A DNA stretch of 64,000 bases from Promethearchaeota archaeon Loki_b32 (GCA_005223125.1 NJBH01000009.1:32001-96000); one strand, 5' to 3'; positions 46,546-61,568 are shown, counted from the first letter of the stretch. Program-made: numbers and translations. Notes: generated by a model not told the origin, from the sequence alone.

Positions 46546-46573
46546 TAAAGGTTTAAGGTGCACTTTTAGAACA
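46546..46573 (-). promoter_or_regulatory. Conserved 28-bp box, copy 1 (putative operator abutting TATA)
   Basis: Plus strand taaaggtttaaggtgcacttttagaaca; one mismatch to copies 2 and 3; 59 nt upstream of the ICMT-like start. Confidence 0.8.
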
Positions 46574-46675
46574 ATTTTGGATATAAAATAAAGGATGCTT
46601 ATCTATTTCTTTATTTCTTCTTAGAAAATATATATCCTACAATTTCTAAAGTAGCATTCCTTTCCAATAAAAAAT

Positions 46676-47752
46676 CTATTTTTTATATTTATATATAATA
46701 ATAATAACTATTACTAAACCTGTCATAATAACAACTATAATAACTGGGATTATAAAATTTGGATTTTGAGGTAGAGATAGATTTGAAAGTTCGAGGATTT
46801 CTAAACCATCATCTAAGTCAGTTAAAAATACTATATTATTATCAACAAATAGATTTCTCGTGTGCCCTCCATCATTAAATCCGCCTATCTTCCAAGGATT
46901 AGTAGGATCACTTATATTAACGATTTCAAGCCCATCATTATCATCTGATAGAAAAGCTATATCATCTAAAATGAAAGCATAGTATACATTACCTCCGTTG
47001 TTGAACGATCCCAAAGTAATTGGATGGATAGGATCACTCACATTCAAGATCTCTAAACCATTTGAACTGTAACACAAGTAAGCAATATTTTCTATGACCT
47101 TAACACTGTAAGCACCTTCCCCATTAAAACATCCACCGATTTCGGAAGGATTAAACGGATCTGAGATGTTAACTATTTCAAGACCTGCATGATATTCTGC
47201 TATATAAGCTAAGTCTCCTTTAATAAAAACCCCGTTAGGCGATCCACCATCATTGTATTCACCAATTTTATTTGGATGTCTAATATCGCTGCAGTTAATA
47301 ATTTCAAGTCCATTTTCTATACTCACTAAATAGACAAGATCTCCAACAGTAAAAACATCAGAAACATGTCCTCCATCATAGAAATCACTTATCTTAGTAG
47401 GGTTTAATGGATTTGATACATTGACTATTTGCAAACCACTAAAATAATTCGCTAAATAAGCGACTCCATTAAGAACATCGATACTGTGAGTTACTCCGAG
47501 GTCAAGATGCCCCAATTCGGTTGGATTGCGAGGATCAGAAACATCAATAATTTGCAACCCTTCTTCATTTCCCCCTATATATGCTATATCATCGATTACT
47601 ACAACATCCCAGGCAAATAAAGTGTCGAATTGCCCGATCTTTTGTGGATGCATAAATAAATCAGCATATACTTTATTATTGTTTGATAAAACCGTAAAAA
47701 ATACTATAATAATAATAAAAAATATCTTTAAGGGGGGTGCCTTTGAATTCAT
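46676..47752 (-). CDS. Secreted, C-terminally anchored LVIVD-repeat protein
   Basis: Signal peptide, about 7 repeats of AY.A....GLEI.NVSDP..P..IG, and a C-terminal TM helix. Confidence 0.9.
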   Translation of the reverse strand: MNSKAPPLKIFFIIIIVFFTVLSNNNKVYADLFMHPQKIGQFDTLFAWDVVVIDDIAYIGGNEEGLQIIDVSDPRNPTELGHLDLGVTHSIDVLNGVAYLANYFSGLQIVNVSNPLNPTKISDFYDGGHVSDVFTVGDLVYLVSIENGLEIINCSDIRHPNKIGEYNDGGSPNGVFIKGDLAYIAEYHAGLEIVNISDPFNPSEIGGCFNGEGAYSVKVIENIAYLCYSSNGLEILNVSDPIHPITLGSFNNGGNVYYAFILDDIAFLSDDNDGLEIVNISDPTNPWKIGGFNDGGHTRNLFVDNNIVFLTDLDDGLEILELSNLSLPQNPNFIIPVIIVVIMTGLVIVIIIIYKYKK

Positions 47753-47803
47753 ATTTCCTCAAATATTTTTGAATGTTTAATTTAATTTATGAAAATATTA
47801 TTA

Positions 47804-47831
47804 TAAAGGTTTAAGGTGCACTTTTCGAACA
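47804..47831 (-). promoter_or_regulatory. Conserved 28-bp box, copy 2
   Basis: Plus strand taaaggtttaaggtgcacttttcgaaca, running into TTTATAA on the minus strand; 52 nt upstream of the LVIVD start. Confidence 0.82.
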
Positions 47832-47883
47832 TTTTAAAGTATTAATTTTACCTTGGAAGATTAAGACTTTAAAATTTTAAAAC

Positions 47884-48678
47884 TTACTTGAGTAATATTG
47901 CAGAGAACAGTTCTTCTACTAGTTTGTTTACTTCTAGTAAACTTTTTGATTTATCAGAGACATCAATTATTGGTTTTCCTTTTAATTCAAATTCAGTTAT
48001 TTCATTATCTTCTGGAATTTCTGCTAAAAGGGGTAATTTTAGATCATCAATTTTCTTTTTAATCTGACTTGTATTACCTTTAACTCTATTTAAAATGAGA
48101 CCTAACTTTTTATATTGAGTAAATTTTTTTGCACCATTACGTATAGCAGCAGCAGTTTCTATACTCCGTATTGAGATATCTGAAACAATTAAAAGGATAT
48201 CTACTGTTTCAATAACCATTCGATTGATTTGCTCAAGTCCTGCTTCACAATCAATTAAAACTATGTCAAAATCTTTAGTGATTGAGTTAATTACCTTACG
48301 TAAAAGTGCATTTGAAGGACAAAAACATCCAGGTCCCTCAGGTTGTCCTATAGAAAATAAACTAAAATTTTTACTTTCTGTAATTGCATTATATACTTCA
48401 AAGTCAATATTTTCTGCTACTTTATCCAAATCTTTTGCTTTTGTTAAAATTTCATCTATAACATCAGTTCTTAATTTTTCAAGACTTTTTTTGGGAATTA
48501 AATTTACCATATGACTCAAATGAGGATGTGTTGGATCTGCATCAATTAATAGTATATTAAAATCATATCCTTTTGAAATACTCTTAGCTAAAAGAGTTGT
48601 TATAGCTGTCTTACCAGAACCACCTTTTCCTACAACTGAAATTGTTAACGGTTTTTCATAATTTTTTTGTTTTTTCAT
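47884..48678 (-). CDS. cooC: CooC/AcsF-type nickel-insertion ATPase
   Basis: GKGGSGKT, IDADP, GPGCFCP, DCEAGLEQ and ILNRV motifs. Confidence 0.88.
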   Translation of the reverse strand: MKKQKNYEKPLTISVVGKGGSGKTAITTLLAKSISKGYDFNILLIDADPTHPHLSHMVNLIPKKSLEKLRTDVIDEILTKAKDLDKVAENIDFEVYNAITESKNFSLFSIGQPEGPGCFCPSNALLRKVINSITKDFDIVLIDCEAGLEQINRMVIETVDILLIVSDISIRSIETAAAIRNGAKKFTQYKKLGLILNRVKGNTSQIKKKIDDLKLPLLAEIPEDNEITEFELKGKPIIDVSDKSKSLLEVNKLVEELFSAILLK

Positions 48679-59722: not shown

Positions 59723-59978
59723 TTTTCTTTTCAAAATCTTTAATTTTTATAGTAGAATATTTTGTGCCAGATGGATAAGTACTATCTGCTGAATTTATTC
59801 CAATAGATATTAAGAAGAATAATAAGATAGAAGATGATACAATTAAAATAAAAATAAATAATATTCTAAATGAAATTTGATGTTTTTTATCATGAAAAAA
59901 TAATAAATTATTTACCTCTTTTTTAGATAGCCCTAAAAATTTGCCAAATCTGTAAAATTGAGCAATTGTGGTAATCAT
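59667..59978 (-). CDS. Small single-TM protein, trio member 2 (candidate rSAM substrate)
   Basis: QFYRFGKFLGLSKKEVNNLL-TM-NSADSTYPSGTKYSTIKIKDFEKK. Confidence 0.75.
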   Translation of the reverse strand: MITTIAQFYRFGKFLGLSKKEVNNLLFFHDKKHQISFRILFIFILIVSSSILLFFLISIGINSADSTYPSGTKYSTIKIKDFEKKNEIKYRLWKKVRDRLLQY

Positions 59979-60310
59979 TTTAAAGATTTTACACCAATAT
60001 TTAGAACTTTAAAAAATCTACTATAGAAAGGGGAAACGAGTTTGCTAAATCTAGATTTATTCTTAAAATCTTTAACTTTTACTGACGAATAAAAAGAGTT
60101 GGAAGGATACGTGGAATCTGCGGGGTTGGTTATTATCATAAAGAGTGAAAATATAAATATACAGAAAAATGCAATAATAATTATGGAAAGACAGAAAAGT
60201 TTCATTTTTTTATATCTCCCCGAATAAGATAAGAAAACTCTATTGATTTCATTTTTATGAATTCCTAAACTCCTACCAATTTGATAAAACTGGATAATCT
60301 CATCAAACAT
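59975..60310 (-). CDS. Small single-TM protein, trio member 1 (candidate rSAM substrate)
   Basis: MFDEIIQFYQIGRSLGIHKNEINRVF-TM-NPADSTYPSNSFYSSVKVKDFKNK; GGAGG RBS; ATGA overlap with member 2. Confidence 0.78.
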   Translation of the reverse strand: MFDEIIQFYQIGRSLGIHKNEINRVFLSYSGRYKKMKLFCLSIIIIAFFCIFIFSLFMIITNPADSTYPSNSFYSSVKVKDFKNKSRFSKLVSPFYSRFFKVLNIGVKSLK

Positions 60311-60339
60311 TTTTAATATTAACCTCCATTATCATGAAT

Positions 60340-61494
60340 TTAATTTAAGATATTAATTAATTTTGATATTGTAGTATCTACTTTTTTATTAATAGGTACA
60401 AGTTTATGATTTATCATTGTATTTTCAATGGCTCTCAAACAATAAGGGTTTTCAAAGGATTTTAAAGCTAGACTAGTTCCAAGGCAACCCCCCCTACAAT
60501 CATCAGCAAGATCGCATTGCTGGCAAAAATCTTTTAATGGATATCTTTTATTTTTCAATCTTTTTAAAATTTCATCTAAACTTTCATTTCTAATATTACC
60601 TTCAATATAATCATCTGGAAGTGTAAGACATCCTTTTATGTTTCCATTACTTTGAATACCTAAAACTGAATGACCTGCTTGACACCCAACCCAAGGATTT
60701 AATCCTAATTTAGGAATAAACCTTGAGAAATATCCAAAGCAATGAGCCCCGATTAAAGGTAATCTTTTGTAAGAATATTTTTTATGATTAATTGCTATAA
60801 ATAATGCCAAAGTATAATATTCTTCTCTAGAAATAACTAATTCTTTTGGAAAACGTCCAATAGGGACTGCTAATTGGATTTGCCATGCGATATTTTTATC
60901 AATTAATAACTTCTTAATCATGTTTATTTCTTTAAAATTAATTTTACTTACGGACGTAATAACAGTTACTGGAAGCTTTTCTTTTTTTAGTAAACTTATA
61001 AGATTTAAAGTTTTTTTGAATGAATTGTTGATACCCCGTAAATAATCATGTGTTTCTCCTCTTCCTCCATCTAAACTTAGAGATACACAGTCTGTTTTTA
61101 ATTCTTTTATCTCTTGTATATGTTTCTCTAAATTTAATCCATTCGTGATTATGGATAATTGCATTTTTTGATTTTTTACATCTCTTGCAATGTCATACCA
61201 ATCATCTCGTAATAATGGTTCGCCCCCCATTAAAGCAACTCCCTTATAACCATATGACTTTAAGTCTTTAACTAATTTTAAAGCTTCATTTGTATTTAAT
61301 TCATCAGAGCGAGCAAATCCTGCATCTGAACCACAGTGAATACATTTACTATTGCACTTTAACGTGATTTCCCAAACTGCACAATTAGGTTTAATTTTAT
61401 TTAATAATAGATCTGAAAATTTCGTCATATGATTTTCTGAATTACGTTTATTATTGTTATTTATGATTTGTAAATTAAAATCCTTTGTTTGCAA
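60340..61494 (-). CDS. Radical SAM/SPASM-domain maturase (PlpX / rad_SAM_trio-like)
   Basis: AVWEITLKCNSKCIHCGS (CxxxCxxC), GGEP, SLDG..ETHD.LRG, WQIQLAVPIGR; SPASM cysteines GCQAG...IKGC...CQQCDLADDCRGGC...NPYC. Alternative start ATG at 61428. Confidence 0.92.
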   Translation of the reverse strand: MQTKDFNLQIINNNNKRNSENHMTKFSDLLLNKIKPNCAVWEITLKCNSKCIHCGSDAGFARSDELNTNEALKLVKDLKSYGYKGVALMGGEPLLRDDWYDIARDVKNQKMQLSIITNGLNLEKHIQEIKELKTDCVSLSLDGGRGETHDYLRGINNSFKKTLNLISLLKKEKLPVTVITSVSKINFKEINMIKKLLIDKNIAWQIQLAVPIGRFPKELVISREEYYTLALFIAINHKKYSYKRLPLIGAHCFGYFSRFIPKLGLNPWVGCQAGHSVLGIQSNGNIKGCLTLPDDYIEGNIRNESLDEILKRLKNKRYPLKDFCQQCDLADDCRGGCLGTSLALKSFENPYCLRAIENTMINHKLVPINKKVDTTISKLINILN

Positions 61495-61540
61495 TAAAAA
61501 AAATTTAACTTCGTTATACTATTAGTAAAAATCTTAGTAA

Positions 61541-61568
61541 TAAAGGTTTAAGGTGCACTTTTCGAACA
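61541..61568 (-). promoter_or_regulatory. Conserved 28-bp box, copy 3
   Basis: Identical to copy 2; 47 nt upstream of the rSAM TTG start. Confidence 0.82.

Follow-up and report, generated by a model that had tools for sequence, protein, structure and literature searches.

The DNA analysed here is a 64,000-nucleotide (nt) window of Promethearchaeota archaeon Loki_b32 (GCA_005223125.1 NJBH01000009.1:32001-96000; G000:C58:32001-96000 in our numbering of genomes and contigs), taken from an assembly of 4.13 Mb with 29.9% G+C, in which a 28-bp box precedes an operon for an ICMT-type methyltransferase and a membrane-bound regulator (REG1), a gene for an LVIVD-repeat beta-propeller protein, and an operon that starts with a radical SAM (rSAM) enzyme and includes a second regulator (REG2). 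A search with the pattern TGTTCKAAAAGTGCACCTTAAACCTTTA, allowing up to three mismatches, matched the window at three places only, 46546-46573, 47804-47831 and 61541-61568, each time on the minus strand. When the window was shuffled 100 times with its dinucleotides preserved, the 28-letter pattern was never matched. Two of the copies are identical and the remaining one has T instead of G at position 6; when the copies were aligned with 100 nt of flank per side, similarity began and ended at the box and the flanks were unrelated, so that on these points the preliminary description of the window was confirmed.

Extended through the TATA-like letters, the first copy (46542-46573, minus strand), a proposed composite operator-promoter, reads TGTTCTAAAAGTGCACC at positions 1-17, TTAAACC at positions 18-24, the position expected of the transcription factor B recognition element (BRE), and TTTAAAAA at positions 25-32 (TATA), with 58 nt to the ATG of the ICMT gene. 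The second copy (47800-47831, minus strand) consists of TGTTCGAAAAGTGCACC, TTAAACC and TTTATAAT, with 51 nt to the LVIVD ATG, and the third (61537-61568, minus strand) of TGTTCGAAAAGTGCACC, TTAAACC and TTTATTAC, with 112 nt to the conserved rSAM ATG. A distance of 47-59 nt to the start codon had been given for all three copies; this holds for the ICMT and LVIVD genes, but the 47 nt assigned to the rSAM gene counts from a TTG at 61494. That TTG was rejected as a start codon: the orthologous spacers of 99, 113 and 122 nt differ by non-multiples of three and, because they vary in this way, the TTG extension of the rSAM open reading frame (61429-61494, minus strand) is probably non-coding. The true start is probably the ATG at 61428, where the N-terminus conserved among orthologues begins, which would leave a leader of ~85 nt after the predicted transcription start.

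The genes downstream of the boxes all lie on the minus strand. The first operon opens with an ICMT/PEMT-family membrane methyltransferase of 196 aa (45897-46487; PF04140, 32.5 bits; PF04191, 31.2 bits) and continues with REG1 (45159-45890; 243 aa), in which two N-terminal transmembrane (TM) helices and a flexible linker are followed by two winged helix-turn-helix (wHTH) domains, wHTH1 (PF24266) and wHTH2 (HTH_24). The LVIVD-repeat beta-propeller protein (46676-47752; 358 aa) has a signal or anchor at its N-terminus and a TM anchor at its C-terminus, on which basis it is classed as a predicted surface protein. The third unit comprises the rSAM/SPASM enzyme (60340-61428; 362 aa), the small proteins p111 (59975-60310) and p103 (59667-59978), a protein with a class-I methyltransferase-like N-terminus (under Pfam cut-offs) and a C-terminal TPR region (58388-59734, exact start uncertain), a third small protein, p96 (58030-58320), and REG2 (57284-58009), a REG1 paralogue of the same architecture; p111, p103 and p96 are paralogous to one another and to p86 of contig C52. 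TM-wHTH regulators are therefore encoded downstream of two of the three copies in the window, as originally described. After REG2 lies a 71-aa remnant of an ICMT N-terminus (57041-57256); in the rSAM operon of relatives (L066:3184-3759, L093, L094) an intact ICMT gene stands between the third small protein and the regulator.

A motif scan of the genome and its relatives, which had been suggested together with the original description, placed the box before orthologous genes in the relatives and added only one copy in the 4.13-Mb genome at up to seven mismatches, at G000:C52:14095-14122 on the plus strand. This fourth copy is upstream of a paralogous operon encoding an rSAM-SPASM enzyme (61% identical), the 86-aa small protein p86 and a methyltransferase-TPR protein. 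With a weight matrix derived from 87 box instances, the four box sites scored 39-53 bits, while the next best site in the genome scored 6.4 bits. All four copies are intergenic, share the orientation of the gene downstream and end in TTTAWAA, in agreement with the TATA-like ends noted earlier. The proposal that the box links the ICMT-REG1 operon, the LVIVD surface protein and the rSAM operon in one candidate regulon was borne out, and the promoter on C52 was added to it. Its conservation and placement mark the box as a cis element tied to promoters, and the regulon that it defines is very small.

Across the 87 instances, information content was ~0.1 bit per position up to position -4, climbed at -1/1 and dropped after about position 31. 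Mean pairwise identity was 0.87 within the box, a value somewhat inflated because the instances were gathered by similarity to the consensus (six mismatches or fewer), versus 0.35-0.38 in two upstream 28-nt windows and 0.40-0.48 downstream. Positions T1-G2-T3-T4, A7, A9-A10, G11-T12-G13, A15-C16-C17-T18, A20-A21 and T25-T26-T27 were invariant or nearly so, positions 6, 8, 14, 23 and 24 were variable, and on the 3' side the sequence ran on as TTTAWAA. The box can thus be read as an asymmetric 17-bp putative recognition element, TGTTCNAWAAGTGSACC (positions 1-17), joined to 7 bp, TTAAANN, at the BRE position (18-24) and a TATA element, TTTAWAA (25-31). Most of the 87 instances have the same 7-bp spacing between the 17-bp element and the TATA; the few variants finish with TTAT, TTAA or TTTAT, their TATA being displaced by one base or their 3' half diverged, and diverged paralogous loci of another genus kept only TGTTCGATAAGTGCACC, the 5' 17 bp, with the 3' part altered. 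The imperfect dyad GTnC-N7-GnAC pointed out in the preliminary description did not survive this comparison as a symmetry: its letters are present, but position 4 is T in 85 of the 87 instances, and at position 14, which would have to pair with it, 82 have C or G and only one has A. The embedded 6-bp palindromes TTCGAA and GTGCAC were likewise discarded, being broken by the variable positions 6 and 14. Because the dyad and both palindromes fail at positions 4, 6 and 14, we treat the site as one that is, by its conservation, asymmetric.

A second conserved block, approximately ACAGAATTATTTCTTATTCTGT, lies between the TATA and the expected start in ICMT-type promoters (46521-46542, minus strand, in the window; L009, L010, L062 and L095 are further examples). 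It forms an imperfect 7-bp inverted repeat in which a mean of 4.1 of 7 pairs are complementary in register and 1.8-2.6 out of register; one of the pairs is often G-T. The block may serve as an initiator or 5' element, or else as a second operator that mediates, for instance, autorepression.

Within the genus, the 28-mer was found at up to three mismatches in 21 of 24 sampled species, and in none of 16 genomes from other families of the order; the degenerate 28-mer was present in 46 of 54 species of the genus. The 5' 21 bases were found in 81 of 135 genomes of the family, spanning 8 of 13 genera at one to four sites each, and a reversed control gave far fewer. When the first gene downstream of the 87 non-identical instances was classed by blastx against the window proteins, it was ICMT in 48 (with the regulator next in most), LVIVD in 13, rSAM of either paralogue in 6, a small protein plus methyltransferase-TPR in 2, the regulator alone in 3 and another gene in 15. 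Those of the last class that were examined mostly encode either TM proteins ~170-180 aa long or proteins whose N-termini are hydrophobic and whose length is ~490-540 aa; one of the latter has SBBP beta-propeller repeats. In relatives, every instance with an identifiable downstream gene was co-oriented with that gene. Among loci with a REG1 orthologue and sufficient upstream DNA, nearly all had the box 53-59 nt before the ICMT ATG, and the apparent exceptions were truncated contigs, REG2-type operons, in which the box is further upstream, and diverged variants; a box before nearly all orthologues of the ICMT-regulator operon is the classic signature of autoregulation, which we predict here. The adjacent ICMT protein fell to 45-60% identity while the box stayed within one to four mismatches, and in G048 the box is upstream of an LVIVD-like gene joined into a single operon with ICMT-REG1. 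The box is kept in orthologous promoters whose flanking intergenic DNA has diverged, which is the pattern of a phylogenetic footprint, and it is intergenic with fixed orientation and distance to the TATA and the gene, as is characteristic of promoter-proximal operators.

The slot upstream of ICMT-REG1 (L046, L047, L054, L056, L057, L060) varies by species and is occupied by LVIVD, by an SBBP beta-propeller, by TM proteins of ~176 aa or by unknown proteins of ~525 aa; every gene in this slot has its own box, and up to four occur in tandem. Comparison of these junctions suggests a cassette-like turnover of surface-protein genes at the boxes. At one locus of G002 (L017:1501-1650; G002:C5:251381-251408) a perfect box is followed after ~120 nt by a convergent gene, with no co-oriented open reading frame; either this promoter is an orphan or a small or antisense RNA is transcribed from it.

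REG1 matches PF13412 at 74.6 bits and PF24266 at 71.2 bits, and the same pair of domains is found in REG2. The two regulators are 44% identical overall and near-identical in both wHTH domains, where they have the recognition helices QKGQLQWHL (wHTH1) and R(N/S)(T/S)VKYH(I/V)DKL (wHTH2) in common. In 21 orthologues from several genera these helices were invariant or nearly so, and the membrane part varied freely. The next REG paralogue in the genome (on C40, ~417 aa) has different recognition helices, which is consistent with the finding of no further box sites. An AlphaFold2 (AF2) model of the regulator (mean pLDDT 74) has long helices at residues 9-45 and 51-88, a disordered linker at 86-97 and two winged helices. 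Basic residues before the first TM helix and after the second, together with an acidic 12-residue loop, suggest an N-in/C-in hairpin with an external loop of ~12 residues. A Foldseek search with the AF2 model returned tandem winged-helix proteins (TFIIIC, SelB, ScpB, ESCRT-II and RPC62) and ArsR/MarR domains at low TM-scores, informative on fold class only, and a sequence search of the PDB gave a single weak wHTH match, 5duk. REG1 combines a DNA-binding domain with at least one TM segment (assigned from the AF2 helices and hydrophobicity) in one polypeptide, as transmembrane transcription regulators (TTRs) do. Box and regulator also tend to occur together: 20 of the 22 genomes of the genus that were sampled for both had both (counting G022, where the regulator gene is broken and the box is a variant seen only in the looser family-wide search), and G004 and G050 had neither a REG1/2 orthologue nor a box.

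We estimate a probability of about 0.65 that the 28-bp box is a composite operator-promoter read by the paralogous, membrane-tethered REG1 and REG2, which would control their own operon and a few envelope genes. Positions 1-17 (TGTTCNAWAAGTGSACC) would be the asymmetric recognition element for a sequence-specific factor, and transcription is predicted to start ~25 nt past the box. The factor would be the REG1/REG2 pair, anchored by its N-in/C-in hairpin of two TM helices, and the two different wHTH domains of each chain would read successive major grooves, TGTTC and AAGTGSACC, whose centres are separated by about one helical turn; a chain with two unlike wHTH domains could in this way account for a long, non-palindromic site. 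Bound right beside the BRE, a REG protein, still in the membrane or perhaps freed by proteolysis, would help, or else hinder, the binding of TFB and TBP. The position directly upstream of the BRE is the classical one for archaeal activators, as exemplified by ArnR (PMC6396743) and TFB-RF1 (PMC5937170), and we favour activation over repression at about 60:40. The predicted regulon would consist of the ICMT-REG1 operon, the LVIVD surface beta-propeller and the two paralogous operons for an rSAM-SPASM enzyme, small TM proteins and a methyltransferase-TPR protein. Since the regulator has no sensor domain beyond its two-helix hairpin, it might itself sense the membrane products of its own regulon (the rSAM-SPASM-processed small TM proteins, the methyltransferase-TPR protein and the ICMT-like enzyme) by intramembrane contact or regulated release, an extension that we consider quite unlikely. 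If it is true, there would be in an Asgard archaeon a closed feedback loop between membrane-anchored peptide maturation and transcription, which in function would distantly recall eukaryotic membrane-tethered transcription factors and ICMT-type C-terminal processing.

Several observations weigh against control by REG1 and REG2. The letters at the BRE position and the TATA look like a competent core promoter with no obvious need for an activator, and it is because they look competent by themselves that repression by occlusion keeps its share of the estimate above. The TATA assignment relies on what is generally known of archaeal promoters and on the outline of the conservation island, because a genome-wide promoter consensus could not be derived: the upstream regions of 11 candidate tRNAs called by ARAGORN shared no motif from which a general BRE/TATA consensus could be taken, and TATA-like words showed no positional peak upstream of ~1,000 roughly called genes. 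The selection of the 87 instances by similarity, mentioned above, also flatters the within-box identity. Other points speak for a different reader, namely that the box is a genuine regulon promoter recognised by another DNA-binding protein, or by a TFB paralogue on an extended BRE (ACCTTAAANN) with a partner, and that the regulators are mere members of the regulon. Eight TFB paralogues, all with two cyclin-fold repeats, are encoded in the genome (on contigs C4, C24, C26, C39, C40, C44, C48 and C61), so that a dedicated TFB could account for part of the conservation at positions 16-24; positions 16-22, which coincide with the BRE position, belong to the most invariant of the box. A Sulfolobus TFB paralogue with a promoter set of its own has been reported (preprint 10.64898/2026.09.06.749720). 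In addition, the box is kept in two genomes, G005 (100% complete; C8:66637-66664, L025:1501-2100) and G020 (92% complete), in which no REG1/2 orthologue was detected. In G005, however, the ICMT-REG1 genes are deleted between the box and a conserved convergent SWIM gene, and the box carries, at the near-invariant position 11, an A in place of the G seen in 82 of the 87 instances, so that it looks relic-like and, as a single case, may be decaying. Conservation reaches ~24 bp upstream of the TATA, beyond the usual contact of TFB with the BRE, and distant loci retain the 5' 17 bp but not the part at the BRE position. No association of the box is stronger or more universal than that with the operon of the regulator itself, and the recognition helices of the regulators are conserved in step with the box. 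With these points set against one another, a reader other than REG1 and REG2 is unlikely.

The copies might instead be alike by descent only, a promoter cassette having been placed before different genes by duplication or recombination, without a dedicated factor being involved. The downstream block of ICMT-type promoters (TTATTTCTTATTTT) does also occur in some LVIVD promoters, which suggests promoter duplication, and across species different surface-protein genes, each with its own box, occupy the slot upstream of ICMT-REG1. Against this, the box is 87% identical over at least eight genera, with identity of 0.35-0.38 only a few bases away, which requires purifying selection on the box itself; duplication may therefore explain how the box spread but not why it was retained amid randomised flanks, and descent as the whole explanation is very unlikely. 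A reading of the box as a mobile-element terminus or as a structured RNA element is almost certainly wrong, the bare fact of a repeated 28-mer being all that speaks for it. Wide occurrence, or an origin as the end of a miniature inverted-repeat transposable element (MITE), had been named in the preliminary description as what would count against a regulatory site; what was found is four copies genome-wide at up to seven mismatches, with unrelated flanks, at a position that is syntenic across species, and neither strand has an inverted partner or another site above 6.4 bits. A MITE or repeat end was rejected on these grounds. An RNA element was also rejected, as no conserved stem lies inside the box and a scan of 44000-63000 against Rfam 15 at E values up to 1 gave no match at the boxes and only a chance mir-302 match at 57179-57236.

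The arrangement predicted for REG1 and REG2 has partial precedents. In ArnR and ArnR1 of Sulfolobus acidocaldarius the HTH is N-terminal, a HAMP and sensor domain is present and the two TM helices are C-terminal; the flaB promoter carries the ArnR boxes as a pair of 15-bp inverted repeats, TCGAC-N5-GTCGA, between -43 and -84 (PMC6396743). That system resembles the present one in several ways: its two regulators are paralogous, membrane-bound one-component proteins whose DNA-reading heads are nearly identical, its short cis boxes lie immediately upstream of BRE/TATA, its targets are cell-surface structures, and a membrane-associated stimulus has been proposed (PMC6396743). In REG1 and REG2, in contrast, the TM hairpin is N-terminal and precedes two tandem wHTH domains, and there is no HAMP or sensor domain, so that the domain order is reversed, and their putative site is a single asymmetric 17-bp element adjoining the BRE position rather than paired TCGAC-N5-GTCGA repeats. 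As both domain order and type of box differ, REG is not a member of the ArnR family, and the likeness is one for which no sequence relationship was shown. TTRs are common in archaea, with 1,384 counted in 367 species (Demey et al. 2023, PMC10269533), and REG falls under the operational definition used there, a DNA-binding domain and at least one TM region in one protein. That survey assigned no operators or regulons, whereas a cognate site and a regulon are proposed here; a search of its main text found no mention of Asgard or Lokiarchaeota (PMC10269533). TFB-RF1 (PF1088) of Pyrococcus furiosus binds directly upstream of the BRE and acts on TFB recruitment; like the regulon proposed here, its regulon is very small (its own operon and one other) and its site adjoins the BRE, but it is soluble and acts at weak BREs, whereas TTAAA is strongly conserved at the BRE position of the box (PMC5937170). 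The domain pair of REG1 is also that of the tandem-wHTH archaeal proteins that combine PF24266 (the HVO_0163 N-terminal HTH) with HTH_24, to which REG adds the membrane hairpin; a literature search for HVO_0163 found no functional study and a mention only in an acetylome list.

The regulatory logic proposed for REG1 and REG2 (one-component, autoregulated, with a promoter-proximal site) is ordinary, but the family is uncharacterised and the lineage important, the Asgard archaea being central to ideas on the origin of eukaryotes; our literature search found no description of a regulator-operator pair for them. The element offers a site with precise limits, a small number of targets and two candidate binders whose DNA-binding parts are soluble, which makes a testable regulator-operator pair. 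It also ties the uncharacterised module of rSAM-SPASM enzyme, small TM protein and methyltransferase to the surface beta-propellers and the ICMT-like enzyme as a candidate co-regulated unit, a functional clue for all of them.

Two further observations concern relatives of the box and of its candidate binders. In genus g9, which belongs to another family of the order, the sequence TGTTCTAAAATTATTCCTTAAGTTTTAA lies ~44 nt before the ATG of a regulator homologue (L114:2393-2420, L117:2498-2525 and L118); it retains TGTTCnAAAA and CCTTAA, with GTGCA replaced. As a related box it was set aside, being present in a single copy per genome and so indistinguishable from ordinary orthologous conservation. 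In genus g12 (G070, G071 and G095) the tandem-wHTH module was found at 9-16 matches per genome, in open frames of ~750-770 aa, and we regard the encoded proteins as much larger membrane-tethered relatives of REG with extra domains.

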